A stretch of DNA of 64,000 bases, from contig OZ024742.1 in assembly GCA_964016885.1 (NCBI GenBank), positions 254,572,001 to 254,636,000 on the forward strand, given 5' to 3'. The position numbers and the translations under genes are program-made. Source of the DNA: Eledone cirrhosa. Its lineage: Eukaryota. Below the pieces are notes generated by a model. That model was not told where the DNA came from, searched no databases, and saw only the letters and a program-made list of their open reading frames with translations. Position 1 is the stretch's first letter. Each line of letters begins with the position of its first letter. Below, piece by piece: positions 36,190 through 63,035 of the stretch.

Positions 36190-39100
36190 TTGTTGTTATT
36201 CCTTGAATCTCAGTCATTGATGTTGGTTAACTGGAAAGTCAGTTGGAATGAATATCAAGCCACTACCTGCAGCCTCAGATATTCAGGACGTATCGGAGGG
36301 TTCTTGCTGTTCCCAGCAAGCATGCCTTTTGAAGCGTTCCAAAAAGCGTGAAGGGGCCGATTTTCTTTAACCATCCCTGGAAACTTTTGGAGATAGTCCC
36401 CAGTGCGCCTATGACAATCGGGATCACTTTGACTTCATGGCAGTTCCAAATCCTTTTCACCTCACACTTTAGGTCCTGGTATCGGTTAATTTTCTCCCTC
36501 TCCTTCTCTTGCACTCTCGTGTCGAATGGGCAGGCCACGTCCACAATCAGACACGATCTTTTTTCTTTGTCCACAACCACCAGGTCAGGTCTATTGTGTT
36601 CCAGTTTCTTGTCCGTCTGTATCCTAAAATCCCACAGCACCTTCACCTGATCGTTCTCCATCACCGCCTCTGGCCTATGCTCATACCATTTCTCAGAATG
36701 TGGTAAATTGTTTACTTTGCACAGGTGCCAGTGGATCACCCTGCCCATCACATCATGTCTCCAGCCCTTATAGTGGGTCTGGGCTAGGTGTTTACACTCG
36801 GACACAATGTGAGCCACAGTCTCCTCTCTGTCTCCACAGATCCTGCACAGTGGGCTAGCCTCCTCCTTGTAAATATGGTGCTTCAACCACTTCGTTTTGA
36901 GGGCCTGCTCCTGCGCAGCCATTAGCATTCCTTCTGTAGCCTTTTTGAGGTCTCCTCTTCTCAACCAGTTCCATGTCTGTGGATATCTAAATTCAGTTTT
37001 CTCAAAGAAGGTACTATGAAGGGATTTTCCCTGAAGGCTGCTCTTTCTCCTTGATGTTATTTCCTCCTTGGACATCCCCTGGCCTTCTGTCCCCTCCTTC
37101 AGTACAGTTCTGAGCATTGGCTCCTTACTATCAGTCACGTATTTGTATAGGTTGTTTTTCTCCATCTGAACACAGTCCTCTATGCTGATAAGACCTCTTC
37201 CACCCTCAGATCTCGTTAGGTAGAGTCTATCGACATCACTCCTCTTGTGGAACATGTTGTAGATAGTCAATAGCTTCCTAGTCTTCCTATCCATTTCTTT
37301 TTGTTCAGCAACATTCCATCTCAGAATTCCAGCACTGTACCTAATAATAGACACAGCTCGGGAATTTACTGCGCTTATGGCATTTCTGCTGTTCAGATGT
37401 GACTTCAATACGCACCTTATTCTCCGAATGTATTCGGTTCTTAACAATTCCTTCATTTTTTTGTTCTTTATGCCATCAGCCTCCAGAACGCCCAAATACT
37501 TGTATCCTTCCTCAGAGTCAATTTCCTTTATCATCTCACCTGTTGGTATCTGGATTCCGTTATTTCTGCTCAACCTACCCCTCCTCATCACAATGACTCC
37601 ACATTTACCAATACCAAACTGCATACATATATCACTGCTGAAAATACGGACAGTGTCAACAAGCACATCCAACTCCTTCTCACTTTTCCCGAAGAGCTTA
37701 AGATCGTCCATGAAGAGGAGGTGATTGATGGTAAGCTCTCCCCTTCCCAACTTGTATCCTGCTCTCACTTTTCGCAGCATAATGGTCAAGGGCATCAGGG
37801 CAAGGACAAACAACAGAGGGGACAGGCTATCTCCCTGGAAGATACCTCTCTTGATCTTCACGCTTCCCAAGGATACTCCAGTTGATGTCAACTCTGTCTC
37901 CCAGGACCCCATACTCCTGCCCAGCAACTGTCTGATGTTCTCTGCCACCTTGAAGATCTCCAGGCTTTTGGTGATCCAAGAATGAGGCACCATGTCAAAT
38001 GCCTTTCTGTAGTCTATCCATCCCATGGCAAGATCAGTGTGTCTCCTCCTGCAATTCCCCATTACCATTTTATCAATAAGTAACTGGTCCTTTGTACCAC
38101 ATGACTTCTTTCGGCATCCTTTCTGTTCGTCCGGTAAGAAGTTGTTTGTGTGGAGGTGATGGTAGATTTCCTCAGACACAATGCTCGTCAACAGTTTCCA
38201 CATTACGGACAGACATGTGATAGGTCTATAGTTGGTAACATCATTACCCTTGATTCGGTCTTTCATTATCAGAACTGTGGTACCTTTTGTCAACCACTCT
38301 GGCACCTCACCCGACACCAAGCAGTCATTGAACATGGCCGTCAGCTTCGGGTGGAGGGATGTTAAATTTTTAATCCAATACCCCTGCACACCATCTGGGC
38401 CTGGCGATTTCCAGTTGGTTAGTTTTTTGGCCTGCCCCTTGAGAGTTTCAACTGTGATACTCAAATCAGTTTGTTGGTGTGCCTGTTCACCGATCTCCCT
38501 CTGTACTGTCTCAATCCACCCTGCCTGGTCATTATGTCTAACATCCTGCTCCCATATTCCTCTCCAGAATATTTTAGTTTGTTCCGCCCCAGGGATCAAG
38601 TCGTTGCCTCTTTCTTTCCCCTCAAGCTGTCCAAACAGCATCTTCTGGTTGTTGTCGAACATGCGGTTCTGTTTATACTGACTGACTCTGTTCTCGTATC
38701 GCCTGATTTTGGCACTCTTTGCTACAATGCGTTGCTTCAGTTCCTCTATGATAATATTTAGCTTTTTCCTCCTAGTGTTGTACTTTATTTCGAGTCTATT
38801 TTTAGTGCCTATGTTTTTTAGTGTCCCATTCAGTAGTGACTCAAGCTTTCCTATGTCATTTCTCATTTCCTTGATTTGACCACTCAGTCGTTTCTTCCAC
38901 CAAGGCTCTGCTCTTTCTTGTCTGTTGTTTCCTCTCGCTTTTATACCAAGTAGTTTCCTCACCGTATTTGCTGTTGTTTTGAGGATATTGTTGCACTGGT
39001 GAAGGCTCCTCGCCTCAAGGTATGGGATGACTTTGTTTACCTTAGCTGTTGTTTCTTTTAACTTTTTCCTGTCTACAAATCTTAGGTTCATACGTTTCCC

Positions 39101-40717
39101 ACTATCATTGTTCAATTCATCTACCACTAAATTTAGGATGTCAACCGAATCTTGTCCTAGCCCGTCAGCATTCATCTCCTCAGTGGCCGTATCTCTGTTC
39201 CAGGTATTATTTATCTCAGTATTTAGATCATTGTCTGCTTCGGGTGGTTCCTCCGTTCTCTCGACCTCTTCACCTTCATTTCCCACTGGCTCGTGTGTCC
39301 GGCATATTACACCCTCCATCTCCAAGCTATTCTCTCTGCTCAGTTCCTCCAGTTCCACCTCGCTTATCCACCCATTAGTTCTTATTACCCGAGCCAGCCC
39401 GGCCAATTTTTGTTCATCTAATTTAAATAGACCAATCTCTTTCCAGATGTTATGCATCCTTTTCCTATAGCCCCTCTCCTTGGGGTTACTTTTCAGGTAA
39501 CATTGCATAACAGTTCTATTCAATTCTTTCGTCCAGTTGGTTCTGGCCCCTTTCTTTCTTCTCTTTCCTCCAACATCAGCAGTATTTGGTTGACAGTCAG
39601 GTTCCTGCTGCTGAGCCAGGGAGCACCTGTTGGGTGAGAGTCTGTCACATGACGTTCTAGTCTCCATTTCACCATTATTCGAACTGTTTAGGTTCGATAT
39701 TTAAACACTCTTATCGAGGATTGGCGAATGTATGGTTACATAGCCATCTGTGGATTCTCCGTCGCCGGTGTTTGCGCCGCTCCACTTGGCACTTGTGTGG
39801 CATTATCCCCACGCTGTAGACGAACACAAATAAACAAACAAACACACAGGCAGAAAAGACCCTAAAAATGAATAAGCATAAGTTTCATTTTAATGTAGTG
39901 TTCGAATGTCTGACTTAGTTTTTCCCCCCTCTTCTTTGTCCGTCCGCTTGTTTCTCTCTTCATTCTTATTTTCTTTACGTTTTTTTTTTTTGTTTTGTTT
40001 TTCTCGTTTTTTGCTGTTGTTGCTGTGCTGCTTTGGTTTTGTTGTTTGTTTTTCTTTTTTCTTTTGAGTCTATTTATATATTTTGATGCCTTCCTCTTTT
40101 TTAGTAGTAGGAATTCTATAATGTGGTGGCAGCAGCCAGCAGGCAGATGTGGGAGACAGTAGCGGCTGTATCGATACTGAGACAGTGGTGGTGGTGATGT
40201 CGATACCGAGGCAGTGGTGGTGGTGATGTGATCGTATTACTGTAGTGATGGTGTTGTAGCGGTGGTAGCAATGAAGGAGTGGTGGCGGCGGTGATGGGAT
40301 AGTGGTGGTAATGATGGCAGTAGTGAGTGGTGGTGGTGAAATTGCCGTTATCTGGCTGTTGTGTTTAGTGTACACAGAGAGGTGATGGGGTAGGTGGTGT
40401 ATCTAGTTTCTGGTGTTGGTGAGTTTGGTGTTGTTTGGCTGTTCTATATAGTGTAGACAGAGGAGGGGGGTGTTCTTCTTCCATTTATAGCCATTTTCTT
40501 TTTTGAATATACAATGTACAATACAAAGTTGTATATTTGAATATTTGAGCCTTATAACAATATATTTTGGGTCCGAATTTTTGGGGACTCAAGCCGGATG
40601 CTTTACGTAGCATTTGTACTAAGAGTTGTTATTTCACAAATGATTTAAATATGTTAAAAATTCAAAACTTACGGGAGCGATTTCATGACCTTCCACCACC
40701 TCGTGCGTCTTCTTCCC
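36190..40717 (-). mobile_element. Full-length Dong/R4-clade non-LTR retrotransposon (copy A1, ~4.5 kb) in (TAA)n
   Basis: Single ORF, ~1.05-kb 5' UTR starting GGGAAGAAGACGCACG, short 3' UTR, and (TAA)n on both sides. Confidence 0.96.
36275..39667 (-). CDS. R4-clade polyprotein: Myb-like N-terminus, reverse transcriptase, CCHC zinc knuckle, restriction-like endonuclease (1130 aa)
   Basis: WTKELN...GYRKRM, SPGPDG, YRPITCL, WIDYRKAFD, GIFQGDSLSP, LFMDD, YKYLG, CRIC...HIVSEC, RH, RPD...DVACP...EKINRY. Confidence 0.96.
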   Translation of the reverse strand: METRTSCDRLSPNRCSLAQQQEPDCQPNTADVGGKRRKKGARTNWTKELNRTVMQCYLKSNPKERGYRKRMHNIWKEIGLFKLDEQKLAGLARVIRTNGWISEVELEELSRENSLEMEGVICRTHEPVGNEGEEVERTEEPPEADNDLNTEINNTWNRDTATEEMNADGLGQDSVDILNLVVDELNNDSGKRMNLRFVDRKKLKETTAKVNKVIPYLEARSLHQCNNILKTTANTVRKLLGIKARGNNRQERAEPWWKKRLSGQIKEMRNDIGKLESLLNGTLKNIGTKNRLEIKYNTRRKKLNIIIEELKQRIVAKSAKIRRYENRVSQYKQNRMFDNNQKMLFGQLEGKERGNDLIPGAEQTKIFWRGIWEQDVRHNDQAGWIETVQREIGEQAHQQTDLSITVETLKGQAKKLTNWKSPGPDGVQGYWIKNLTSLHPKLTAMFNDCLVSGEVPEWLTKGTTVLIMKDRIKGNDVTNYRPITCLSVMWKLLTSIVSEEIYHHLHTNNFLPDEQKGCRKKSCGTKDQLLIDKMVMGNCRRRHTDLAMGWIDYRKAFDMVPHSWITKSLEIFKVAENIRQLLGRSMGSWETELTSTGVSLGSVKIKRGIFQGDSLSPLLFVLALMPLTIMLRKVRAGYKLGRGELTINHLLFMDDLKLFGKSEKELDVLVDTVRIFSSDICMQFGIGKCGVIVMRRGRLSRNNGIQIPTGEMIKEIDSEEGYKYLGVLEADGIKNKKMKELLRTEYIRRIRCVLKSHLNSRNAISAVNSRAVSIIRYSAGILRWNVAEQKEMDRKTRKLLTIYNMFHKRSDVDRLYLTRSEGGRGLISIEDCVQMEKNNLYKYVTDSKEPMLRTVLKEGTEGQGMSKEEITSRRKSSLQGKSLHSTFFEKTEFRYPQTWNWLRRGDLKKATEGMLMAAQEQALKTKWLKHHIYKEEASPLCRICGDREETVAHIVSECKHLAQTHYKGWRHDVMGRVIHWHLCKVNNLPHSEKWYEHRPEAVMENDQVKVLWDFRIQTDKKLEHNRPDLVVVDKEKRSCLIVDVACPFDTRVQEKEREKINRYQDLKCEVKRIWNCHEVKVIPIVIGALGTISKSFQGWLKKIGPFTLFGTLQKACLLGTARTLRYVLNI

Positions 40718-40994: not shown

Positions 40995-42405
40995 TATGTT
41001 TTTTCTTTGAGGTTCTAATGCTGGAGATGTATTAGGGTATCAGCTGTTCATTGCCCATAAACTGAGGTAACGCCGCTCATTTTTCCAAGCATCCTCTGGA
41101 GTATTGGAGCTGTCTCAAACAGTGCGGTTTTTTGCAAGTGCTCATCACATATTGACACCTCTTTTTGAGGAATGTACTTCTCAAGACCTTTACTTACTTC
41201 ACACATTCCAGGATCCAAGAATATCGAATAATATCATAGGCTTTGCATTAATCAAACCACAATATGACCAAGCTGGTTTTCCTTCTTTTGCGATCCCTAA
41301 GTATTGTTTTGTCTATCAAAAGCTGATCCTCAGTATCTTTGTACTTACACTTGCACACTTTCTGCTCCTCTGGAAAGACCCCATTTAATTCAAGGTGCCC
41401 ATTCATTGATTCTGAATTTATTCCAGCCTATAATTTCTCCATAAGTAGACTCCTCTTTTGTTTGGTCTAACCTATTGTCTAATCTCTTTGATTGTCTTTC
41501 TTCTTCTAGACATCTACATCCATGTTCCCTGCTACAACAATGCTTGCTGACTTAGGCAGATTATTTGTTTCTGTTGTGTTATTTTTTCTGATGTATTTCA
41601 GAATTTCATTTACCTCTTTTGTTTCTTAGTTCAACTTCCATTGGTCAACCTTTTTATGTTTGCAAATAATGTTATTGATATCCTCTTGTAACCTTGCTTT
41701 TATTCTGTCTAACATTGCCTTCTGCTCATCTCTCATGTCTCCTTGAATTCCATTGTCTTCCAGATCATCCATATTTCTCTCACTGGACAAACTATCATTG
41801 CTCGTCTTGTGTGTGTTACCAGAAATCTCTTCACTCTTATCCTCTACTGTAGGTTCCCTTTCTCAGTATGAGCTGTAATTTCATCATTTCTTCCACTGCT
41901 GTTTTATAATACTTGTCTTTTGGTAGCTTCGTGTTTCACATCTGTCAACAAGCGAATTTTTTTTAATGCTGTGGCTTGGTCACATAATCACTGCTCTATG
42001 AGTTAAAACAAAGCTCTTTCTCTCCATTGTCTGTACATATGTTCCTAGTATCCCTCAATAGGGACAATATTTTCATCTACAAGTTTGCTCTATGACCACA
42101 ACATTTGCTTGTTTACTCCCCTTCCAACTTGTTTGCTGATCCATTGCTGGATAACAACCTGCTGGAGTTGAACTAGATACTCCAAGTGTGCTGAACACCA
42201 CTTCTTCACCATCAAGGTTTCTTCTGAAATTTTGATTTGATATTACCACTCACATGAGGTAACGATTATTAGGTTGCAATTTGACAGGTTTTGTTTTTCA
42301 TCCATTGAGGATGGCCAAATTTACCCTCTTCACTGATCACCTGACAATGTCACAGATTGTACTGGGTTACATGTTACCAGTAGCACTTGAAAGTTTCCTA
42401 ACCAT
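40995..42405 (-). mobile_element. Internally deleted, decayed R4-like element of a different family
   Basis: Minus-strand remnants of Myb-like (EQ.LCDQA), RT (DQLLIDK, KAYD...SWI) and RLE C-terminal (LQKTALF) regions, with a TAA-like tail. Confidence 0.7.
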
Positions 42406-42413
42406 AATTATTT

Positions 42414-42700
42414 TGCCTTTCATTCTTACGGGGTCGATAAAATAAAGTACCAGTAATGTACTGGGTAATTGCTGGCCTTGTGCCTAAAGTAGAAACAATT
42501 ATTTGACAATCTAAGGGCGGTGAATTGGCAGTATCGGTAGAGGGTCGGACGCCATGCTTTGACGCATAGAGTTACAGCCCTTGCCATTCTGAGTTCAAAT
42601 CCCGCCGAGGTTAACTTTGCCTTTCATCCTTACGGGGTCGATAAAATAAAGTACCAGTAATGCACTGGTTATTTCTGGCCTTGTGCCAAAAGTAGAAACA
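42414..42700 (+). mobile_element. Tandem SINEs: truncated copy (42414-42500) and full-length copy (42515-42700) with TSD attatttgacaatcta
   Basis: The TSD is visible at ~42498-42513 and ~42701-42716. Confidence 0.92.
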
Positions 42701-42719
42701 ATTATTTGACAATCTATCA

Positions 42720-44158
42720 TAACCAACTTTGATGTTGCTTTGGGCCAGTTATTTTAGGGAATACTAGGCTACAGTTAGATACCTAGGGTAACTCTATATT
42801 TTTCATATCTTTCCTTGTCGTTTCACTACTGCTGGTAGTACAGAACCTTTTCAATATCTGAGCTTTTCCAGTAGGCGCAGTTCAATTCCTGGTGCAAAGT
42901 GTTTTTTTAACAGGTAATTTCCAAGGTTCTTTGTCACTATGCCAAGAGCACCAATCACCACTGGGACAATGGTGACTGTCTTCACTTCATTACTCCAGCA
43001 TTTCAAGATCTCATATTTTAAGTCAGCATAAGTCCCTATTTTCTCCTCTTTTTGTTCAATTCTGGTATCATAGCGTACAGCTTCTTTCCTTCTCAATTAC
43101 AACAATATCTGGTCTGTTGTGTTCAATCTTCATCTCAGTCTGAATTAGTAAGTCCCTAAAGAACCTTATCTCATTGTTCTCTAACACTCTGATTTCATTT
43201 GTGATACCGTGTTCGTAGCTTTTTTCTGTACATGGAAATTCATACTTTTTACACAAGCTCCAGTGCAACATGGTAGCCACTTTATCATGTTTACCTTTTG
43301 TTATATTCATTATAGGCTAACAGCTTACACTCTGGAACGGTATGGGCAACTGTTTCTGTTTATCCACACAAATTCTGTATTCAGTTTGAACATATTTCTT
43401 GTCTATGTTTTTCACTACCTGTCTTGTTTTTCTGGCTTGATTTTGTGCTGCTAATATAAGTAATTCCATTCCATTCTTAATGTAGTCTTTCCATAACCAT
43501 AACCAAGTATTTTTGTTATCACACACGTTTCTTGTTTACTTAAGGAATCCTGAAGGCAGGGGCTTTTCATCAAATTCTTTATTATGCTCTTTAGCAATCA
43601 CAGTCTTTGTATTTTCTGGGTCTCCATATATGCCTTCCCTGACAACTTCCAATATAAGTTTTTCTTCCTTATTTTTTTATGTAGAATCCTATAACACTTT
43701 CTTTTATTTAGACAGCATCCTGTATGTTCAGCATTCCCTACCTTCCTTTTTTCTTTTTCAATACTGGTGCCTACTTCGATAGATAGTGAGCATTTTACTT
43801 GTTTTATGATCAATTTCCTTCAACTCTACTTTTTTCCATTCTTCTATACCTGCACCATTCCTAATTAATGAAACAGCTCTGGCATTTATTCCCTGCACAG
43901 TATTTCTACCATTCAAACTGGACTTAAGCATCAATCTCTATTTTCAAACGTACTCTTTTCTGACAATATTTTCCACTTTTTTGCTTTTTAATGTATGGCT
44001 TTATAGCACACCTAGATATTTATATGCTTCATCTGTTTCCAGTGAAATGATTCTTTTACTGTTTGGTAGTTTGATTCCACCACACCTTACCAGCCTTCAA
44101 CGCATCACCTCTATCATTGCATATTTTGAAATTCCAAACTCCATCCTAATGTCCTCAG
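42720..44158 (-). mobile_element. Decayed 5'-truncated R4-like element (another family)
   Basis: LAAQNQA, CRIC-like, HDKVATMLHWSLC, HNRPDIVVIEK, IVPVVIGALG. The 5' junction abuts a (TAT)n tract. Confidence 0.85.
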
Positions 44159-44174
44159 AAATTATTATTATTAT

Positions 44175-44460
44175 TATCTTTTACTTAATGTCTCAATCAT
44201 TGATTGTTATTCAGCCAGAATAATTGCTGTAATGAACATCAAGTTGCTACCCGCAGTCTCAGATATTCAGGACATATTGGACGGTCATTGCCGTTCAAAG
44301 TAGGCATGCCTTTTGAAGTGTTCCAAACAGGAAAGTGGGCTGATGATCTTTAGCAAACATTGGAAACTCTTCGAGAGAGTATCCAGTGCTCCCATAATGA
44401 TGGGGATGACTTTGATCTCATGGCAGTTCCCAATCCTTTTCAGTTCCTTCTCCAGGTCCT
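44175..44460 (-). mobile_element. Short 3' fragment of Dong/R4
   Basis: QDLEKELKRIGNCHEIKVIPIIMGAL plus the homologous 3' UTR and TAA tail. Confidence 0.85.
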
Positions 44461-45628
44461 GAAGCATGAGAAGTGTAGTTTTTGCTGATGTTGTTTCTAT
44501 AGTATTGATAGTACCTTTCATAATATGTGTGCAGTGCCTAGTAGTGCTATCTTTTGTATGCTGTAAATATTTATAAGACCTGGGGTTTAGGTTATGTATT
44601 TGTCTTTTGTTTTTTATCATTCTCAGAGCACCTATTATTATAGATATTATTTCTGTTTCATTTTCCACATTCGGGTTATTTCTATCTCTAGATCTTTATA
44701 TTTGGAGAGTTTCTCTATTTCCTTGGAAGATATATTGTCGTCTTTGGGGGATTGATACAACTATTAAAAGGCATTTTCTGCTTTGTGGTCTTTCACTATA
44801 ATATCAGGTCAGTTGGCTTCGATTTCCCTGTCTGTACGTATTGGCAGGCATATCCCAGAGAATGGTTGCTTTGTCATTCTCTGACACTTTTTACGTGTGT
44901 GTTTATACCATCTTTTTTCTGTTAGTATTTCATAATGATGGCATAACTTCCAGTGTATGAAGGTCCCAACTATATCGTCCCTCTGGATATTCTGGACATC
45001 CAGAAATAATGTGGTTGACTGTTTCTTCCCTATCCCCACATATTCTACAGATACTTATTGTGCTTTGTTTCATTATGTACTTCTGGTAGTTTCTGGTGGG
45101 TAGGCTTTGGCCTGCACGGCAATTAGAAATCCTTCCATCCAGTGCTTCGGAGCCAATTGTGTATGTTTTCTTTGTCTGCTTACTTTTTATCTAGCTTTTT
45201 GGGGTATTTGCCATGTAACGATTTCTCTTGCCGTTGTTTTAACATGGCATTCTGGAGGTCAGTTCTCAATTTAGATTTTATACCTTTCACAATTTCTGTT
45301 GTTTTTTTTATTTGTTTTCATTTTTCTCTCAGTTATGTTATTCCAGTTTCTGATTTAACTTTTTTGGCTTCCTTGAAGACCGAGAACAGTTATTGTTTTG
45401 TTCATGTTTTGTGGCTATTTGTATTAGCTTTCTTTTGTTTTTTTATTAGGTAACTTTGTAGTCCTACAGTAATTATTTTATAAGAATTTACTAGTTGTAT
45501 AAGGACCTTTCCTCCTTGTGTCCTTGTGTTCTTGATAGATATAATCTTTCTACGTCTGAATTTGGATGGTCTTTTCTAAAGGCAGTCATTATTTTTCTTG
45601 TTTTCCCATCTATTCCAGCTAGTTCTTT
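44461..45628 (-). mobile_element. Decayed R4-like fragment (further family)
   Basis: FIHWKLCHHY...WYKH, IRTDREIEAN and IIIGAL motifs. Confidence 0.8.
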
Positions 45629-45629
45629 T

Positions 45630-46470
45630 AGTATCTATAGAGGGCTAGTGGAGGGGAAGAGTGACAACATTCTCGGGGAAACCTTTAGTGTAGAAGACGA
45701 TCAGCTGTTTGCTCTCTTCAAGAGAAATTTCAGCCCGGGGCCTATGGACAACTTCCAGAAATCCCTGGCCTGGCAGAGCTACCGGGAACGTTGGCGGTTC
45801 AAGATAAGCTCTACAGGCACAGAAGTGCCGTCATCCGAACCTGTCCGAGATGCGCACAGAGCGACGAAACCGTTGTGCATGCACTTGTTCAGTGTTCGAG
45901 CATAGCTGACTTGTGGAGCTATGTCAAACATTTGCTGTCACATGCAGGACGGATCCGGTTATCGACTGATTCCATTGTGCAGATAGCCCCACCATCCTCC
46001 TTTAAAGAGGAGGAGGGGCAGGCAGTTTTCATCTGTTTGGTGACCATGGTAAAAGAGATTGTATGGTTGACAAGGTTGAAAGGATTGAAGACGGGCACTT
46101 TCCTCTTCGGCGAATCCCCGATTAACTTTTCCAAATTTCACTTGAAGAGGAAATTCAGGGTGGAGAGGAAAGTGCTGTCTTCTAGTAAGTTTGTTGAAAG
46201 GTGGGTGAAGAGTCTGGTCCGAGTGTATGGGCCCGAGTGGAAGATTGCTCTGGTGGTCAGGGTGACCGTGGTCTTTTGTGTGGTTTTCGCCACGAGTGAC
46301 CCTTGGAGTTTTCCCCCTATTGGGAATTTTTGTTGTTTGAATTTTTTTGGTATTTCTATCTTCTTGTTATAACTTTTTTTACAAGGCCAAAATCCACTTT
46401 GTATCATCATGTGCCGTCTGAAATGTTTTTCTTCATGTTAGCCCTTCTGGCCAATAAAGAAACCATTATC
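45630..46470 (+). mobile_element. Tx1/L1-clade ORF2 3' fragment with (ATT)n tail
   Basis: Homologous to 19514-20176 (YRGLVEGKSD, PGPMDNFQKSLAWQ, CPRCAQSDETVVHALVQC). Confidence 0.9.
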
Positions 46471-46484
46471 ATCATTATTATTAT

Positions 46485-49400
46485 TGTTCTTTGAGTCTCA
46501 GTCATTGATGTTAGTTAACTGGAAAGTTTGTTGAAATGAATATCAAGGCGCTACCTGCAGCCTCAGATATTCAGGACATGTCGGAGGGTTCTTGCTGTTC
46601 CCGGCAAGCATGCCTTTTGAGGTGTTCCAAAAAGTGGGGCTGGACTAAGCTTCTTTAACCATCCTTGGAAACTCTTTGAGATAGTACCCAGTGCGCCTAT
46701 GACAATCGGGACCACTTTGACTTCATGGCAGTTCCAAATCCTTTTTAACTCCCACTTTAAGTCCTGGTATCAGTTAATTTTCTGCCTCTACTTTTCTTGC
46801 AATCTCGTGTCAAATTGGCAAGCTACATCTACAATCAGGCACGATCTTTTTTCCTTGTCCAAAACCACCCGGTCAGGCCTATTGTGTTCTAATTTCTTGT
46901 CCGTCTGTATCCTAAAATCCCATAGCACCTTCCCCTGATCGTTTTCTACCACCGACTCTGGCTTATGCTCATACCACTTCTCAGCATGTGGTAAATTGTT
47001 TACTTTGCATAGGTGCCAGTGGATCACCCTGCCCATCACATCATGTCTCCAGCCTTTATTGTGAGTCTGGGCTAGGTGTTTATACTCGGATACAATGTGA
47101 GACACAATCTCCTCTCTCTCTCCACAGATCCTACACAGTGGGCTAGCCTCCTCCCTGTAAATATGGTGTTTCACCCATTTCGTTTTGAGGGCCTGTTCTT
47201 GCGCAGCCATTAGCATTCCTTCTGTAGCCTTTTTAAGGTCTCCTCTTTTCAACCAGTTCCATGTCTGTGGATCTCTAAATTCAGTTTTCTCAAAGAAGGT
47301 ACTATGAAGGGATTTTTCATGAAGGTTGCTCTTCTTCCTTGTTGTTATTTCCTCCTTGGACATACCCTGGTCTATTGTCCTCTCCTTCAGTACAATTCTG
47401 AGCATTGGCTCCCTACTCCCAGTCACGTATTTGTGTAGGTTGTTTTCTCCATCTGAAAACAGTCCTCTATGCTGATAAGACCTCTTCCAACTTCAGATCT
47501 CCTTAAGTAGAGTCTATCGATATCACTCCTCTTGTGGACACATGTTGTCGATAGTCAATAGCTTCCTAGTCTTCCTATCCATTTCTTTTTGTTCAGCAAC
47601 ATTCCATCTCAGAATTCCCGCACTGTACCTAATAATAGACACAGCTCAGGAATTTACTGTACTTATGGCATTCCTACTGTTCAGATGTGATTTTAATACA
47701 CTCCTTATTCTCCGAATGTATTCAGATCTTATCAATTCCTAACTTTTTTGTTCTTGATGTCATCAGCCTCCAGAACACCCAAATATTTGTATCCTTCTTC
47801 AGTGTGAATTTCCTTTATCATCTCACCTGTTGGTACCTGGATTCCGTTGCTTCTTCTCAATTTACCCCTCTTCATCATTAGGACTCCACACTTACTAATA
47901 CCAAGTTGCATACATATATCATTGCTGAAAATTCGGACAGTGTCAACAAGCACATCCAACTTCTTCTCACTCTTCCCGAAGAGCTTAAGATCGTCCATGA
48001 AGAGGAGGTGATTGATGGTAAGCTCTCCCTTTCCAAACTTGTATCCTGCTCTCACTTTTCGCAGTATAATGGTCAGGGGGATCAGGGCAAGGACAAACGA
48101 CAGAGGGGACAAACTATCTCCCTGGAAGATACCTCTCTTGATCTTCACCCCTCCCAAAGGTTCTCCACCCGATGTTAACTCTGTTTTGCAGGACTTCATA
48201 CTTTTGCCCAACAACTGTCTGATGTTATCTGCCACCTTGAAGATCTCTAGGCTTTTGGTTATCCGAGAATGAGGTACCATGTCGAATGCCTTTTTGTAGT
48301 CTATCCATCCCATGGCAAGACCAGTGTGTCTCCTCTTGCAATTCCTCATTACCATCTTATCAATAAGTAACTGGTCTATTGTACCACGCGACTTCTTTTG
48401 GCATCCTTTCTGTTCGTCCGGCAACAAGTTGTTTATGTGGAGGTGATGGTAGATTTCATCAGACACAATGTTTGTTAACAGTTTCCACATTACGGACAGA
48501 CATGTGATAGATCTATAGTTGGTAACATCATTACCCTTGATTCGGTGTTTCATTACCACAACTGTTTTACCTTTTGTCAACCACTCTGGTACCTCACCTA
48601 ACATCAAGCAGTCATTGAATATGGTAGTCAGTTTCGGGTGGAGGGATGTTATATTTTTAATCCAATACCCCTGCACACCATCTGGGCCTGGTGATTTCCA
48701 GTTGGTTAGTATTCTGGCCTGCCTCTTAAGAGTTTCAACTGTGATACTCAAATCAGTTTGTTGGTGTGCCTGTTCACTAATCTCCTTTTGTACTGTCTCA
48801 ATCCACACTGCATGATCATTATGTTTAACATCCTGCTCCCATATTCCTCTCCAGAATGTCTTAGTCTGTTCCGCCTCAGGGATCACGTCGTTGCCTCTTC
48901 CTTTCCCTTCAAGCTGTCCAAACAACATCTTCTGGTTGTTGTCAAACATGTGGCTCTGTCTATACTGACTGACTCTGCCCTCGTATCACCTAATCTTTGC
49001 ACTCTTTGCTATAATGCGTTGCTTCAGTTCCTCTATGATAATATTTAGCTTTTTCCTCCTAGTTTTGTACTTTATTTCCAGTCTAATTTTAGTGTCTATG
49101 TTTTGTAGTGTCCTATTCAGTAGGGACTCAAGCTTTCTAATGTCATTTCTCATTTCCCTGATTTGACCATTCAGTGGTTTCTTCCACCAAGGTTCTGATC
49201 TTTCTTGTTTGTTGTTTCCTCTCGCTTTTATGCCAAGTAATTTCCTCACCGCATTTGCTGTTGCTTTGAGGATATTGTTGCACTGGTGAAGGTTCCTCGC
49301 CTCAAGCTATTGGATGACTTTGTTTACCTTAGCTGTTGTTTCTTTTAACTTTTTCCTGTCTACAAATCTTGGGTTCATAGGTTTCCCACTATCATTGTTC

Positions 49401-51105
49401 ATTTCATCTACCACTAACTTTAGGATATCAGCCAAATCTTGTCCTAGTCCGTCAGCATTCATCTCCTCAATGGCCGTATCTTTGTTCCAGGTATTATTTA
49501 ATTCAGCATTCAGATCATTGTCTGCTTCGGATGTTTCCTCCCTTCTCTCAACCTCTTCACCTTCATTTCCCACTGGACACGTTTGCCTGGCATACTCCAC
49601 TCTCCATTTCCAACCTAATCTCTCTGCTCAGTTCCTCCAATTCCAGCTCGCTTATCCACCCATTAGTTCTTATTACCCGAGCCTGCCCGGACAATTTTTG
49701 TTCATCTAATTTAAATAGACAAATCTCGTTCCAGATGTTAAGCATCCGTTTCTTATAGCCTTTTTCCTTGGAGTTACTCCTCAGGTAACATTGCATAACC
49801 GTTCTATTCAATTCTTTCGTCCAGTTGTTTCTGGTCCCTTTCCTTCTTCTTCTTCTTCCTCCAACACCAGCAGTATTTGGATGACAGCCAGGTCCCTGCT
49901 GCTGGGCAAGGGAGCACCTGCTGGGTGGGAGTCTGTCACATGACGTTCCAGTCTCCACTTCACCGTTATTCGAACTGTTTAGGTTCGACATTTAAACACA
50001 CATATCGAGGATTGGTGAATGTATGGTTACATAACCACCGGTGATTTCATCACCCCCAGTGATTTGATCACCCCCGGTGATTTTAGCGAGGCACTATCAC
50101 GCTGTAGACGAACATAAATAAATAAACAAATAAATAGGTAAAAACTTTAAAAAATAAACATAAGTTTCATTGTAATGTTTGAATGTCTGACTTAGTGTTT
50201 TTTTTTTTGTTTTGTTTTTTTCTCTTTACGGTTTTCGTTGCTGCTGCGCTGTTTTGATTTTAGCTTCACGGGAAGTAGGGCTGTTGCGTTCAAAACTTTT
50301 GAAATTTGTTTCGACTTGTTGCTTATCATTATTATTATTATCAGCCGAGGTTAACCTTGCCCTCCATCCCCAATTGATGGCCTTGTGCCAAAAGTAGCAA
50401 CAATTATTATTATTATTATATTATACGGGGTCGATAAAACAAAGCACCAGCAATGCACTGGGCAATTGCTGGCCTTGCGCCAAAAAAAATAGAAACAATT
50501 ATTATTATTATATTATAGTTTAGATTTGACATCGTTTAAACTAAACACTTTGAGAAAGTTTTAGAGGTACAGCAGCAATAATGTTTTTGGTGTTGTTGTT
50601 GCTTCTGACCGGGTCACCAAATCAGTCTATATCTTTTGATACCTTCCTCGCTTAGTGGGACTACTACTATCCCTCTGTCTTAACAGTAGGTAGTGGGAGA
50701 GAATAGCGGCGGTAGCGATAATGTTGCAGTGGTGGTGATGTGATAGTAGTACTGTAGTGATGGTCTTGAAGTAGCCGTTGGTTTGGCTAGATTTTTTGTG
50801 TGTGGTAGTGGTGATGTTGGCGGTGGCGCTGGTGGTGTTGGTGGTGAAATTATTTGCCTGTTGTTTGTAGCCATGTAGCCATTTTTCTTTTTTGAGTATA
50901 ACATTTCTGATCCAAAATTAAATATTAAATATTGGGGCCCTATGCCATAATGTGATGCGTTGTCACTTCCTGAGAGCAAAAAACTCTAATCTTATGTTCC
51001 ATTTGTAATAAGAATTATTCTATCACAATTGTTTTAAATACGTAAAAATCAAAATCTTACGGTAGCGATTCCATAACACTCTATCCACCACGTGCGTATC
51101 TTCCC
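46485..51105 (-). mobile_element. Full-length Dong/R4 subfamily B copy with disrupted ORF
   Basis: ORF pieces 49563-49991, 49307-49600, 48986-49249, 47732-48949 and 46788-47426 are colinear with A1. The 5' end reads GGGAAGATACGCACG. Confidence 0.93.
50344..50500 (+). mobile_element. Two truncated SINE fragments inside the 5' UTR of the B copy, carrying clustered T>C changes
   Basis: Compared by eye with the intact SINEs at 10285, 34651 and 42515. Confidence 0.85.
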
Positions 51106-51155
51106 TTCATTTATCTTCCCTTCAATTTATCTTCCTTTCATTTATCTTCCCTTCA

Positions 51156-51184
<29 letters not shown>

Positions 51185-51188
<4 letters not shown>

Positions 51189-53550
51189 GTTATTGTTATT
51201 CCTTGAATCTCAGTCATTGATGTTGGTTAACTGGAAAGTCCGTTGGATTGAATATCAAGCCACTACCTGCAGCCTCAGATATTCAGGACGTATCGGAGGG
51301 TTCTTGCTGTTCCAAGCAAGCATGCCTTTTGAAGCGTTCCAAAAAGCGTGAAGGGGCCGATTTTCTTTAACCATCCCTGGAAACTTTTGGAGATAGTCCC
51401 CAGTGCGCCTATGACAATCGGGATCACTTTGACTTCATGGCAGTTCCAAATCCTTTTCACCTCCCACTTTAGGTCCTGGTATCGGTTAATTTTCTCCCTC
51501 TCCTTCTCTTGCACTCTCGTGTCGAACGGGCAGGCCACATCCACAATCAGGCACGATCTTTTTTCTTTGTCCACAACCACCAGGTCAGGTCTATTGTGCT
51601 CCAGTTTTTTGTCCGTCTGTATCCTAAAATCCCACAGCACCTTCACCTGACTGTTCTCCATCACCGCCTCTGGCCTATGCTCATACCATTTCTCAGAATG
51701 TGGTAGATTGTTTACTTTGCACAGGTGCCAGTGGATCACCCTGCCCATCACATCGTGTCTCCAGCCCTTATAGTGGGTCTGGGCTAGGTGTTTGCACTCG
51801 GACACAATGTGAGCCACAGTCTCCTCTCTCTCTCCACAGATCCTGCACATTGGGCTAGCCTCCTCCATGTCTGTGGATCTCTAAATTCAGTTTTCTCAAA
51901 GAAGGTACTATGAAGGGATTTTCCCTTAAGGCTGCTCTTCCTCCTTGATGTTATTTCCTCCCTGGACATCCCCTGGCCTACTGTACCCTCCTTCAGTACA
52001 GTTCTGAGCATTGGCTCCTTACTATAGGTCACGTATTCGTATAGGTTGTTTTTCTCCATCTGAACACAGTCCTCTATGCTGATAAGACCTCTTCCACCCT
52101 CAGATCTCCTTAGGTAGAGTCTATCGACATCACTCCTCTTGTGGAACATGTAGATAGTCAATAGCTTCCTAGTCTTCCTATCCATTTCTTTTTGTTCAGC
52201 AACATTCCATCTCAGAATTCCCGCACTGTACCTAATAATAGACACAGCTCGGGAATTTACTGCGCTTATAGCATTTCTGCTGTTCAGATGTGACTTCAAT
52301 ACGCTCCTTACTCTCCGAATGTATTCAGTTCTTAACAATTCCTTCATTTTTTTGTTCTTTATGCCATCAGCCTCCAGAACGCCCAAATACTTGTATCCTT
52401 CCTCAGAGTCAATTTCCTTTATCATCTCACCTGTTGGTATCTGGATCCCGTTACTTCTGCTCAACCTACCCCTCTTCATCACAATGACTCCACATTTACC
52501 AATACCAAACTGCATACATATATCACTGCTGAAAATACGGACAGTGTCAACAAGCACATCCAACTCCTTCTCACTTTTCCCGAAGAGCTTAAGATCGTCC
52601 ATGAAGAGGAGGTGATTGATGGTAAGCTCTCCCCTTCCCAACTTGTATCCTGCTCTCACTTTTCGCAGCATAATGGTCAAGGGCATCAGGGCAAGGACAA
52701 ACAACAGAGGGGACAGGCTATCTCCCTGGAAGATACCTCTCTTGATCTTCACGCTTCCCAAGGATACTCCAGTTGATGTCAACTCTGTCTCCCAGGACCC
52801 CATACTCCTGCCTAGCAACTGTCTGATGTTATCTGCCACCCTGAAGATCTCCAGGCTTTTGGTGATCCAGGAATGAGGCACCATGTCAAATGCCTTTCTG
52901 TAGTCTATCCATCCCATGGCAAGATCAGTGTGTCTCCTCCTGCAGTTCCCCATTACCATCTTATCAATAAGCAACTGGTCCTTTGTACCACGTGACTTCT
53001 TTCGGCATCCTTTCTGTTCGTCCGGTAACAAGTTGTTTGTGTGGAGGTGATGGTAGATTTCCTCAGACACAATGCTCGTCAACAGTTTCCACATTACGGG
53101 CAGACATGTGATAGGTCTATAGTTGGTAGCATCATTACCCTTGATTCGGTCTTTCATTATCAGAACTGTGGTACCTTTTGTCAACCACTCTGGCACCTCA
53201 CCCGACACCAAGCAGTCATTGAACATGGCCGTCAGCTTCGGGTGGAGGGATGTTAGATGTTTAATCCAATACCCCTGCACACCATCTGGGCCTGGTGATT
53301 TCCAGTTGGTTAGTTTTTTGGCTTGCCCCTTAAGAGTTTCAACTGTGATACTCAAATCAGTCTGTTGCTGTGCCTGCTCACCGATCTCCCTCTGTACTGT
53401 TTCAATCCACCCTGCCTGGGCATTGTGTCTAACATCCTGCTCCCATATTCCTCTCCAGAATGTCTTAGTTTGTTCCGCCCCAGGGATCAAGTCGTTGCCT
53501 CTTTCTTTGCCCTCAAGCTGTCCAAACAGCATCTTCTGGTTGCTGTCGAA

Positions 53551-58171: not shown

Positions 58172-61100
58172 TATTGTTATTGTTATTCCTTGAATCTCAG
58201 TCATTGATGTTGGTTAACTGGAAAGTCCGTTGGATTGAATATCAAGCCACTACCTGCAGCCTCAGATATTCAGGACGTATCGGAGGGTTCTTGCCGTTCC
58301 AAGCAAGCATGCCTTTTGAAGCGTTCCAAAAAGCGTGAAGGGGCCGATTTTCTTTAACCATCCCTGGAAACCTTTGGAGATAGTCCCCAGTGCGCCTATG
58401 ACAATCGGGATCACTTTGACTTCATGGCAGTTCCAAATCCTTTTCACCTCCCACTTTAGGTCCTGGTATCGGTTAATTTTCTCCCTCTCCTTCTCTTGCA
58501 CTCTCGTGTCGAACGGGCAGGCCACATCCACAATCAGGCACGATCTTTTTTCTTTGTCCACAACCACCAGCTCAGGTCTATTGTGTTCCAGTTTTTTGTC
58601 CGTCTGTATCCTAAAATCCCACAGCACCTTCACCTGACTGTTCTCCATCACCGCCTCTGGCCTATGCTCATACCATTTCTCAGAATGTGGTAGATTGTTT
58701 ACTTTGCACAGGTGCCAGTGGATCACCCTGCCCATCACATCGTGTCTCCAGCCCTTATAGTGGGTCTGGGCTAGGTGTTTACACTCGGACACAATGTGAG
58801 CCACAGTCTCCTCTCTCTCTCCACAGATCCTGCACAGTGGGCTAGCCTCCTCCTTGTAGATATGGTGCTTCAACCACTTCGTTTTGAGGGCCTGCTCCTG
58901 CGCAGCCATTAGCATTCCTTCTGTAGCCTTTTTGAGGTCTCCTCTTCTCAACCAGTTCCATGTCTGTGGATCTCTAAATTCAGTTTTCTCAAAGAAGGTA
59001 CTATGAAGGGATTTTCCCTTAAGGCTGCTCTTCCTCCTTGATGTTATTTCCTCCTTGGGTATCCCCTGGCCTACTGTCCCCTCCTTCAGTACAGCTCTGA
59101 GCATTGGCTCCTTACTATAGGTCACGTATTTGTATAGGTTGTTTTTCTCCATCTGAACACAGTCCTCTATGCTGATAAGACCTCTTCCACCCTCAGATCT
59201 CCTTAGGTAGAGTCTATCGACATCACTCCTCTTGTGGAACATGTTGTAGATAGTCAATAGCTTCCTAGTCTTCCTATCCATTTCTTTTTGTTCAGCAACA
59301 TTCCATCTCAGAATTCCAGCACTGTACCTAATAATAGACACAGCTCGGGAATTTACTGCGCTTATGGCATTTCTGCTGTTCAGATGTGACTTCAATACGC
59401 TCCTTACTCTCCGAATGTATTCAGTTCTTAACAATTCCTTCATTTTTTTGTTCTTTATGCCATCAGCCTCCAGAACGCCCAAATACTTGTATCCTTCCTC
59501 AGAGTCAATTTCCTTTATCATCTCACCTGTTGGTATCTGGATCCCGTTACTTCTGCTCAACCTACCCCTCCTCATCACAATGACTCCACATTTACCAATA
59601 CCAAACTGCATACATATATCACTGCTGAAAATACGGACAGTGTCAACAAGCACATCCAACTCCTTCTCACTTTTCCCGAAGAGCTTAAGATCGTCCATGA
59701 AGAGGAGGTGATTGATGGTAAGCTCTCCCCTTCCCAACTTGTATCCTGCTCTCACTTTTCGCAGCATAATGGTCAAGGGCATCAGGGCAAGGACAAACAA
59801 CAGAGGGGACAGGCTATCTCCCTGGAAGATACCTCTCTTGATCTTCACGCTTCCCAAGGATACTCCAGTTGATGCCAACTCTGTCTCCCAGGACCCCATA
59901 CTCCTGCCCAGCAACTGTCTGATGTTATCTGCCACCCTGAAGATCTCCAGGCTTTTGGTGATCCAGGAATGAGGCACCATGTCAAATGCCTTTCTGTAGT
60001 CTATCCATCCCATGGCAAGATCAGTGTGTCTCCTCCTGCAATTCCCCATTACCATCTTATCAATAAGCAACTGGTCCTTTGTACCACGTGACTTCTTTCG
60101 GCATCCTTTCTGTTCGTCCGGCAACAAGTTGTTTGTGTGGAGGTGATGGTAGATTTCCTCAGACACAATGCTCGTCAACAGTTTCCACATTACGGGCAGA
60201 CATGTGATAGGTCTATAGTTGGTAACATCATTACCCTTGATTCGGTCTTTCATTATCAGAACTGTGGTACCTTTTGTCAACCACTCTGGCACCTCACCCG
60301 ACACCAAGCAGTCATTGAACATGGCCGTCAGCTTCGGGTGGAGGGATGTTAAATGTTTAATCCAATACCCCTGCACAACATCTGGGCCTGGTGATTTCCA
60401 GTTGGTTAGTTTTTTGGCTTGCCCCTTAAGAGTTTCAACTGTGATACTCAAATCAGTCTGTTGCTGTGCCTGCTCACCGATCTCCCTCTGTACTGTTTCA
60501 ATCCACCCTGCCTGGGCATTGTGTCTAACATCCTGCTCCCATATTCCTCTCCAGAATGTTTTAGCTTGTTCCGCCCCAGGGATCAAGTCGTTGCCTCTTT
60601 CTTTCCCCTCAAGCTGTCCAAACAGCATCTTCTGGTTGTTGTCGAACATGCGGTTCTGTTTATACTGACTGACTCTGTTCTCGTATCGCCTGATTTTGGC
60701 ACTCTTTGCTACAATGCGTTGCTTCAATTCCTCTATGATAATATTTAGCTTTTTACTCCTAGTTTTGTATTTTATTTCCAGTCTATTTTTAGTGCCTATG
60801 TTTTTTAGTGTCCCATTCAGTAGTGACTCAAGCTTTCCTATGTCATTTCTCATTTCCCCGATTTGCCCACTCAGTCGCTTCTTCCACCACGGCTCTGCTC
60901 TTTCTTGTCTGTTGTTTCCTCTCGCTTTTATACCAAGTAGTTTCCTCACCGTATTTGCTGTTGCTTTGAGGATATTGTTGCACTGGTGAAGACTCCTCGC
61001 CTCAAGGTATGGGATGACTTTGTTTACCTTAGCTGTTGTTTCTTTTAACTTTTTCCTGTCTACAAATCTTAGGTTCATAGGTCTCCCACTATCATTGTTC

Positions 61101-63035
61101 AACTCATCTACCACTAAATTTAGGATGTCAACCGAATCTTGTCCTAGCCCGTCAGCATTCATCTCCTCAGTGGCCGTATCTCTGTTCCAGGTATTATTTA
61201 TCTCAGTATTCAGATCATTGTCTGCTTCGGGTGGTTCCTCCGTTCTCAGGACCTCCTCACCTTCATTTCCCGCCGGCTCGCTTGTCTGGCATACTACACC
61301 CGCCATCTCCAAGCCATTCTCTCTGCTCAGTTCCTCCAGTTCCAGCTCGCTTATCCACCCATTAGTTCTTATTACCCGAGCCTGCCCGGCCAATTTTTGT
61401 TCATCTAATTTAAATAAACCAATCTCGTTCCAGATGTTATGCATCCGTCTCCTGTAGCCCCTCTCCTTGGGGTTACTTTTCAGGTAGCATTGCATAACAG
61501 TTCTATTCAATTCTTTCGTCCAGTTGGTTCTGGCCCCTTTCCTTCTTCTTCTTCCTCCAACATCAGCAGTATTTGGTTGACAGTCAGGTTCCTGCTGCTG
61601 AGCCAGGGGGCACCTGTTGGGTGAGAGTCTGTCACATGACGTTCTAGTCTCCATTTCACCGTTATTCGAACTGTTTATGTTCGATATTTAAACACTCTTA
61701 TCGAGGATTGGCGAATGTATGTTTACATAGCCATCTGTGGATCCGCCATCCCACTTGGCCCTTGTGTGGCATTATCACCACGCTGTATACGGACACACAT
61801 AAACAAACAAACAAACGGGCAGAAAGGGCCCCAAAAATGAATAAGCATAAGTTTCATTGTAATGTAGTATTCGAATGTCTGACTTAGTTTTTGTTTTTTA
61901 AGTTTTACTTTTTCCTCCCTCTTCTCTGTCCGTCCGCCTGCTTCTCTCTTCATTCTTATTTTCTTTACGTTTTTGGGGTTTCTTTTTTTGTTTTTGTTTT
62001 TCTCTGTTTTTCTCGTTTTTTACTGTTGTTGCTGTGCTGCTTTTGTTGTTTGTTTTTTCTTTTTTCTTTTGAGTCTATCTATATATTTTGATGCCTTCCT
62101 CTTTGTTAGTAGTAGGAATTCTATAATGTGGAAGTGGTAGCCAGCAGAGACTGGCGGCGTTGGCGATACTGAGACAGTGGTGGTGGTGATGTCGATACCG
62201 AGGCAGTGGTGGCGGTGATGCGACCGTATTACTGTAGTGATGGTGCTGTAGCGGTGGCAGCAGCAGTGAAGGAGTCAGGGGGTGGTGGCGGCGGTGATGG
62301 GATAGTGGTGGTAATGATGGCCGTAGTGAGCGGTGGCGGTGAAGGTGAAAATGCTGTTGTGTTTAGTGTACACAGATGATGGGGTGGGTGGTGTATCTAG
62401 TTTCTGGTGTTGGTGAGTTTCGCTGTCCTATATAGTGTAGCCAGAGGAGAGGAGGGGGGGGGGGGGTTCTTCTTCTTCCATTTATAGCCATTTTATTTTT
62501 TTTTGGATATACAGTGTACAATACAAAGTTGAATATTTGAATATTTGAGCCGTATTACTGTAGTGATGGTGCTGTAGCGGTGGCAGCAGCAGTGAAGGAG
62601 TCAAGGGGTGGTGGCGGCGGTGATGGGATAGTGGTGGTAATGATGGCCGTAGTGAGCGGTGGCGGTGAAGATGAAAATGCTGTTGTGTTTAGTGTACACA
62701 GATGATGGGGTGGGTGGTGTATCTAGTTTCTGGTGTTGGTGAGTTTCGCTGTCCTATATAGTGTAGCCAGAGGAGAGGAGGGGGGGGGGGTCTTCTTCTT
62801 CCATTTATAGCCATTTTTTTTTGGATATACAGTGTACAATACAAAGTTGAATATTTGAATATTTGAGCCTTATAACAATATATTTTGGGTCCGAATTTTT
62901 TTGGGGCTCAAGCCGGGTGCTTTACGTAGCATTTGTACTAAGAGTTGTTATTTCACAAATGATTTAAATATGTTAAAAATTCAAAACTTACGGGAGCGAT
63001 TTCATGACCTCCGTCACCTCGTGCGTCTTCTTCCC
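58172..63035 (-). mobile_element. Full-length Dong/R4 copy A2 with a ~320-bp tandem duplication in its 5' UTR
   Basis: Same termini as A1, (TAA)n flanks, and duplicated units at 62224-62551 and 62550-62869. Confidence 0.96.
58262..61654 (-). CDS. R4-clade RT/RLE polyprotein (1130 aa); RLE PD motif reads PE
   Basis: Same motif set as 36275-39667, except HNRPELVV and GPDVVQG. Confidence 0.95.
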   Translation of the reverse strand: METRTSCDRLSPNRCPLAQQQEPDCQPNTADVGGRRRRKGARTNWTKELNRTVMQCYLKSNPKERGYRRRMHNIWNEIGLFKLDEQKLAGQARVIRTNGWISELELEELSRENGLEMAGVVCQTSEPAGNEGEEVLRTEEPPEADNDLNTEINNTWNRDTATEEMNADGLGQDSVDILNLVVDELNNDSGRPMNLRFVDRKKLKETTAKVNKVIPYLEARSLHQCNNILKATANTVRKLLGIKARGNNRQERAEPWWKKRLSGQIGEMRNDIGKLESLLNGTLKNIGTKNRLEIKYKTRSKKLNIIIEELKQRIVAKSAKIRRYENRVSQYKQNRMFDNNQKMLFGQLEGKERGNDLIPGAEQAKTFWRGIWEQDVRHNAQAGWIETVQREIGEQAQQQTDLSITVETLKGQAKKLTNWKSPGPDVVQGYWIKHLTSLHPKLTAMFNDCLVSGEVPEWLTKGTTVLIMKDRIKGNDVTNYRPITCLPVMWKLLTSIVSEEIYHHLHTNNLLPDEQKGCRKKSRGTKDQLLIDKMVMGNCRRRHTDLAMGWIDYRKAFDMVPHSWITKSLEIFRVADNIRQLLGRSMGSWETELASTGVSLGSVKIKRGIFQGDSLSPLLFVLALMPLTIMLRKVRAGYKLGRGELTINHLLFMDDLKLFGKSEKELDVLVDTVRIFSSDICMQFGIGKCGVIVMRRGRLSRSNGIQIPTGEMIKEIDSEEGYKYLGVLEADGIKNKKMKELLRTEYIRRVRSVLKSHLNSRNAISAVNSRAVSIIRYSAGILRWNVAEQKEMDRKTRKLLTIYNMFHKRSDVDRLYLRRSEGGRGLISIEDCVQMEKNNLYKYVTYSKEPMLRAVLKEGTVGQGIPKEEITSRRKSSLKGKSLHSTFFEKTEFRDPQTWNWLRRGDLKKATEGMLMAAQEQALKTKWLKHHIYKEEASPLCRICGEREETVAHIVSECKHLAQTHYKGWRHDVMGRVIHWHLCKVNNLPHSEKWYEHRPEAVMENSQVKVLWDFRIQTDKKLEHNRPELVVVDKEKRSCLIVDVACPFDTRVQEKEREKINRYQDLKWEVKRIWNCHEVKVIPIVIGALGTISKGFQGWLKKIGPFTLFGTLQKACLLGTARTLRYVLNI

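Follow-up and report, generated by a model that had tools for sequence, protein, structure and literature searches.

Two SINE fragments in the window, by which we mean the whole 64,000-nucleotide stretch of Eledone cirrhosa DNA that was analysed (C3:254,572,001-254,636,000), carry clusters of T>C changes. Judging from genomic DNA, these clusters very probably represent A-to-I edits made by ADAR on the RNA of an ancestral retrotransposon, fixed by reverse transcription and then inherited. They have been passed on to dozens of copies of the host element and they vary among these copies. The earlier note had suggested that an edited transcript was reverse-transcribed and integrated; this proposal is supported, but not for the window copy alone, most of the edits apparently coming from ancestral source elements.

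Two changed SINE fragments in a (TAA)n element

The features of the window on which the analysis is based are the following.

42516..42703, plus strand: unedited full-length free SINE, the natural reference for the first alignments
46431..49991, minus strand: disrupted ORF of the host, a non-LTR element, together with its 3' end, whose position is approximate; identity to the intact A copies is about 89%
49992..51107, minus strand: 5' UTR of the host (subfamily B), its 5' limit approximate; a (TAA)n stretch in it contains the two fragments in antisense, and the siblings share both flanks
50344..50405, plus strand: SINE 3' fragment 1, SINE columns 88-116 and 154-187, with a 37-nt internal deletion
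50356, 50362, 50364, 50370 and 50371, plus strand: T>C sites of fragment 1
50424..50500, plus strand: SINE 3' fragment 2, SINE columns 115-187
50440, 50445, 50451, 50463 and 50478, plus strand: T>C sites of fragment 2
58262..61687, minus strand: related A-subfamily copy with an intact 1141-aa open frame, used to type the host

The SINE is 188 bp long and both fragments are 3' parts of it. When they are compared with the column majorities of random genomic SINE copies, the two fragments together show 10 T>C changes over 38 aligned T sites and 3 other substitutions, besides the deletion in fragment 1 and a longer A run; the remaining 12 SINE pieces of the window have 0-3 T>C each. For the background we used 88 SINE pieces, drawn from 40 stretches of 10 kb at even intervals; one hyper-changed piece was omitted from the rate, which is 0.029 T>C per T in random SINE copies. 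Against this rate, the window fragments give a P of ~1e-7, uncorrected for their post hoc choice. T is the majority base at all ten edited columns in both old and young free SINEs. At 50445 (column 136), C is also a minor variant among young free SINEs (7/53), and at 50356 it is present in some sibling elements only.

Since the host ORF begins at position 49991, minus strand, the T>C changes of the two fragments read as A>G in the RNA of the host's 5' UTR. In the unedited context, the 5' neighbours of the ten sites on the element RNA are 5 U, 3 A, 1 C and 1 G, and one core edit sits at the disfavoured 5' G. The description given in the earlier note holds on all these points: its nine listed positions are all C against T in free SINE copies, 50371 being the tenth; other substitutions are few (3 non-T>C among 13 changes); the neighbour is mostly 5' U or A (8/10 sites); and the fragments are indeed antisense within the 5' UTR of an element on the minus strand, whose siblings have both insert flanks in common.

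The host is a restriction-like-endonuclease non-LTR element located in (TAA)n, and from its sequence its type fits R4/Dong. Indeed, the A-subfamily frame contains a reverse transcriptase (Pfam RVT_1, E 6e-23) whose closest solved structures are R2 proteins, together with a CCHC knuckle and a C-terminal restriction-like endonuclease motif, both read by eye, and the element copies adjoin (TAA)n at both ends, as in a Dong-type insertion. The R4 clade (R4, Dong), in the descriptions available, likewise combines a single ORF, a C-terminal knuckle with restriction-like endonuclease and (TAA)n sites. The host differs from R4/Dong by its long 5' UTR, which collects SINEs, and by having no ribozyme recognised by Rfam, where a 5' HDV-like one would be expected: a scan of 42300-51300 returned one weak unrelated match. 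No tRNA was found by ARAGORN, and an atlas search gave generic reverse-transcriptase clusters only.

The region 34800-64000 is a head-to-tail cluster of minus-strand R4/Dong-like elements nested in (TAA)n, and it includes two intact 1141-aa open frames (36275-39700 and 58262-61687). The SINEs of the window enter (TAA)n in the orientation opposite to these elements. We also observed that the UTRs of the A subfamily (39700-40130 and 61700-62130) differ from that of B (50000-50320) by 25-29 undirected T/C differences vs 8-12 A/G differences, which lie close to the start codon, in a hairpin that is A-rich/U-rich and whose alignment is of low complexity; this T/C excess may reflect editing of a stem of the element's own.

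The C form among sibling elements

A 34-mer of the window with four C has 13 genomic matches, all 13 in this B UTR; an unedited SINE 36-mer (T form) has 38,523 genomic copies. A looser C pattern gave 27 matches: B UTRs account for 20 of them and other hosts for 4, and the remaining 3 show the two forced changes only. The C variants do not make up the free-standing SINE subfamily that the earlier note had set against its own reading, the C form being confined to host retroelements. Across the siblings, fragment 1 is represented by 29 rows with 4-14 T>C, in an alignment where the window's own row is misaligned and certain loci appear twice; for fragment 2 there are 36 rows with 4-8 T>C. The sibling edit sets consist of a common core and of additional sites present in subsets, so that sibling B copies with the same insert differently edited, which the note had proposed to look for, do exist. 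The edits move with the element over many chromosomes and were observed at dozens of diverged loci.

The Cs were also to be confirmed in genomic reads, and C forms are present in read-derived contigs: a 64-nt contig of run X1 is identical to 50448-50511 without difference, joints of the sibling type are present in runs X1 and X3, and run X6 contains C-bearing raw genomic reads, which are not assignable to a locus. At most sites both C and T were seen in runs X1, X3 and X6, because free SINE copies align there too.

The B elements provide internal controls. From 41 B UTRs with both anchors we collected 129 SINE pieces, all of which (129/129) have the same orientation, antisense to the element RNA. 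At least 4 T>C were counted in 62/129 of these pieces, 1-3 in 9/129 and none in 58/129, while A>G always stays at 4 or fewer. Inserts other than the two shared fragments are mostly unedited in B UTRs, which would follow from their arrival after integration of the host copy; the private inserts of L027 and L029, with 12 and 10 T>C respectively, are separate events. No strand bias was detected on the coding side of the host, where T>C concerns 80/306 T columns and A>G 42/169 A columns (39 B copies, 860 bp, mean pairwise distance 6.8%). This unedited coding side fits what the accessible text of PMC5224506 reports for L1, which ADAR1 restricts without detectable editing across 2.5 kb of L1 RNA.

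The B tree built from the coding side (39 copies, 860 bp) is nearly star-like, with two supported clades, and the case for successive rounds of editing therefore rests on the nested edit sets, which partial back-conversion by free SINEs could mimic. Inside the B element, no duplex partner was found, either by folding of the UTR, which gave no long stem, or by the orientation count (129/129 alike).

Inverted SINE pairs and the 5' neighbour

A mirror search returned SINEs whose own strand shows the A>G changes. An inverted SINE pair, which folds into a long stem, is present in five siblings of a short, unrelated element that we take from its resemblance to be RTE-like; on the strand of this host, both arms of the pair show A>G. 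Where the sense arm has a partner, 16, 11, 12, 12 and 9 of 25 A are changed in the five siblings, as compared with 1 of 16-17 A in the loop, at the identical site every time. The sense arm of L074 has 19 A>G and zero other changes. A second inverted pair is L291 (C3:175.814 Mb), whose sibling L296 has the same sense SINE unedited and lacks the antisense arm; between the two, A>G concerns 13/20 A where the sense SINE is paired, 0/15 where it is unpaired and 8/601 outside, and the other SINEs within ~15 kb of this comparison are unedited. At the inverted-pair loci, the changes are almost wholly confined to the part able to form double-stranded RNA and are present on both arms. The host strand is known independently for the B element and for the RTE-like host.

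The spectrum of changes is based on 16 separate inserts, each represented once; L291, which came to light afterwards, is not among them. On the inferred RNA strand, 185/246 changes are A>G, 7 are T>C and 10 are G>A, a figure that is partly circular because the inserts were chosen for having clusters and their RNA strand was set by the dominant change. This circularity touches the spectrum figure; the neighbour and duplex tests are free of it.

The 5' neighbour order of ADAR is U>A>C>G. In the 16 inserts, A is changed at 78/147 sites after U (53%), 77/197 after A (39%), 24/124 after C (19%) and 6/80 after G (7.5%); the neighbour motif, which the earlier note had proposed to test, matches that of ADAR. 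When search-forced and variable columns are removed, the counts become 54/104 for U, 64/178 for A, 23/118 for C and 2/70 for G, with a permutation P of 5e-5 taking SINE sites as units. By 3' neighbour, the changed A amount to 45/110 for G, 47/123 for C, 61/189 for A and 32/126 for U. Random SINE copies show no G depletion, their rates by 5' neighbour being.043 for U,.022 for A,.023 for C and.025 for G.

Clusters of at least 6 changes dominating their piece were counted in 546 SINE pieces, a set enriched by cluster-directed searches in which some pieces are possibly counted twice: 67 are T>C, 18 A>G, 1 G>A and 1 C>T. APOBEC-type clusters of G>A on the sense strand were not detected with a G>A control pattern, which gave 4 matches with 2-3 changes each and no tail. 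The genome contains ADAR2-like deaminase exons with the HAE motif, 95% identical to ADAR2 of Octopus vulgaris. Further adenosine-deaminase (PF02137) exons are located at C1:146.45 Mb, C1:320.73 Mb and C25:17.35 Mb.

Several other loci were recorded. At L228:4780-5505 (C24:18.89 Mb), nine tandem SINE 3' fragments have 10-13 A>G each, at partly different places, and the tandem lies between an EGF-like coding sequence and a spliced-looking exon. L236:4788-5569 (C3:122.63 Mb) is an inverted duplication in which both SINE-fragment copies are changed T>C on the SINE strand (6 in one, 8-9 in the other). Other hosts with R4-like UTR features (L237:4861-5010, L087 and L238:5759-5852) contain SINEs with 10-13 T>C, and another edited-SINE host with such features, L148, came up by chance in the random sample. 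Two lone SINEs have no recognised host element, one with 16 A>G (L229:4619-4754) and one with 10 T>C (L254:5880-6070). At L108 (C1:174.21 Mb), a SINE copy shows a series of C>T changes, most of them at CpG, which looks like methylation decay.

Rival readings, precedents and mechanism

The C forms can hardly represent an ancestral state or come from an ordinary SINE subfamily, even though column 136 is C in a minority of young free copies. The exact matches are all in the B UTR and the looser ones are distributed over B UTRs, other hosts and a few forced-only cases; the sets of C differ between inserts; mirror-image A>G copies exist; and old SINEs carry T. We consider it very improbable that GC-biased gene conversion, a transcription-linked mutation asymmetry or reverse-transcriptase error generated the clusters. 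Every change does raise GC, and the random copies have a mild excess at 5' U, but such processes would hit both strands or the whole element, yet the host coding side is unbiased, the loops are spared, the G>A control stops at its four small matches and the single C>T cluster observed falls mainly on CpG sites. The probability of an assembly artefact, caused for example by polishing with RNA reads, is close to nil: the edits are common to dozens of diverged loci, the 64-nt contig of X1 is an exact match and sibling-type joints are present in X1 and X3 (although these two runs may be the assembled sample), and the raw genomic reads of X6 contain C, at positions not assignable to a locus.

A more particular case is L072 (L230:4374-5943; C2:367,005,873-367,007,442), where three SINEs, one antisense and two sense, lie within 1.6 kb. 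All three are changed A>G on the plus strand (12-13, 9 and 6 changes), and an unedited SINE is present among them. We found no second copy of the L072 flanks and no parent, the DNA search, which scored the best 40 candidates, giving the locus itself and repeats. L072 may be a retrocopy whose parent has been lost or missed, a case of in-place rewriting, or a local artefact. That ADAR-edited RNA also overwrites ordinary loci in place, with L072 as the candidate, is unlikely. Still less probable, as an account of the clusters, is that edited RNA rewrote some loci in place, by RNA-templated repair or cDNA gene conversion, or that the DNA of RNA:DNA hybrids was itself deaminated by ADAR. The available portion of PMC10209271 puts forward the two routes, L072 has its clusters on one strand in flanks for which no second copy was found, and L226 and L194 are likewise without a recognised host. 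Against in-place rewriting, the edits of the window fragments travel with the element across many chromosomes, the changes end at the edge of the RNA duplex, and a parent of L072 may have been missed among the 40 candidates scored. The A>G changes are on the RNA-sense strand, which argues against deamination of first-strand cDNA, since this would yield the opposite strand. Editing of retrotransposon RNA followed by reverse transcription is the reading that we retain.

Part of this reading has precedents. According to the part of the review PMC12925331 at hand, two avian retroviruses were described in the 1990s as bearing ADAR-type clusters; there, as we propose here, edited RNA was copied by reverse transcriptase, and the clusters, in which about half of the A are changed, occupy an inverted repeat. 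The avian cases are infectious retroviruses, whereas the present clusters occur in several families of inherited germ-line non-LTR hosts and in the SINEs that these carry. Fossil APOBEC clusters are known from the LTR retrotransposons of vertebrates, and as far as the text of PMC4866542 was available, that screen kept G-to-A and used invertebrates as negative controls. These fossils resemble ours in being strand-biased clusters of one class in genomic retroelements with an enzyme-specific motif; they differ in that APOBEC gives sense-strand G-to-A through deamination of cDNA, in contrast with the A-to-G, RNA-level and duplex-dependent changes of an invertebrate described here.

Upstream G depletion is presented in the available text of PMC5625713 as an ADAR signature shared across animals, octopus being among the most hyper-edited. 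Squid has ubiquitous repeat-directed editing in RNA according to the accessible part of PMC9068888, and repeat editing is described in RNA only in that of PMC5974252. Transcriptome hyper-editing, like the present clusters, involves inverted SINE duplexes and 5' G depletion (PMC5625713, same extract); it consists of differences between RNA and genome, whereas here the G is in the genome and known from DNA alone. Clusters of A-to-G were enriched in human and frog cDNA traces and not in DNA traces in the available part of PMC2873906. Write-back of edits via reverse transcription appears as a proposal in the accessible sections of PMC10209271, within a debate on "mutational replacement" that also asks whether reverse transcription writes editing into DNA; that debate deals with single in-place sites in genes, usually explained by selection, whereas we describe non-coding clusters carried by retrotransposition, in-place replacement not being demonstrated. 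Our search of the literature, outside most subscription journals, returned no report of inherited ADAR clusters in germline non-LTR elements. The chemistry and the retroviral precedent are known; fixation in the germ line in several non-LTR host families appears to be unreported.

The following mechanism is consistent with these data. The antisense SINE in the element RNA would pair with a sense SINE, which for the window fragments would be outside the element, the candidates being a flanking SINE in a read-through transcript or a free SINE RNA. ADAR would then deaminate A of the duplex in germ-line cells, and the element's reverse transcriptase would copy inosine as G during target-primed reverse transcription; later rounds would likely add edits. 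R4 and Dong are released at their 5' end from longer co-transcripts, which for Dong is a TAA-repeat co-transcript (PMC3774820, in the part available); an inverted SINE lying upstream could thus form the duplex and be removed afterwards. The outcome would most likely be a neutral by-product, the duplex being also weakened.

The scale is tens of loci among tens of thousands of SINEs, with 1/88 random pieces hyper-changed, and on present evidence this is therefore not a major mutational force. If the in-place reading were true, germ-line RNA editing would directly generate inherited A>G mutations at targeted loci. As retrotransposed clusters, the changes are genomic evidence that A-to-I editing very probably acts on germ-line RNA and can be inherited, an ADAR counterpart to the APOBEC fossils of vertebrates. 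They would constitute a datable record of past germ-line ADAR activity and of its neighbour preference, and they indicate that these elements still jump once edited. Feedback from RNA editing to DNA becomes testable by a simple scan of any genome with young SINEs.
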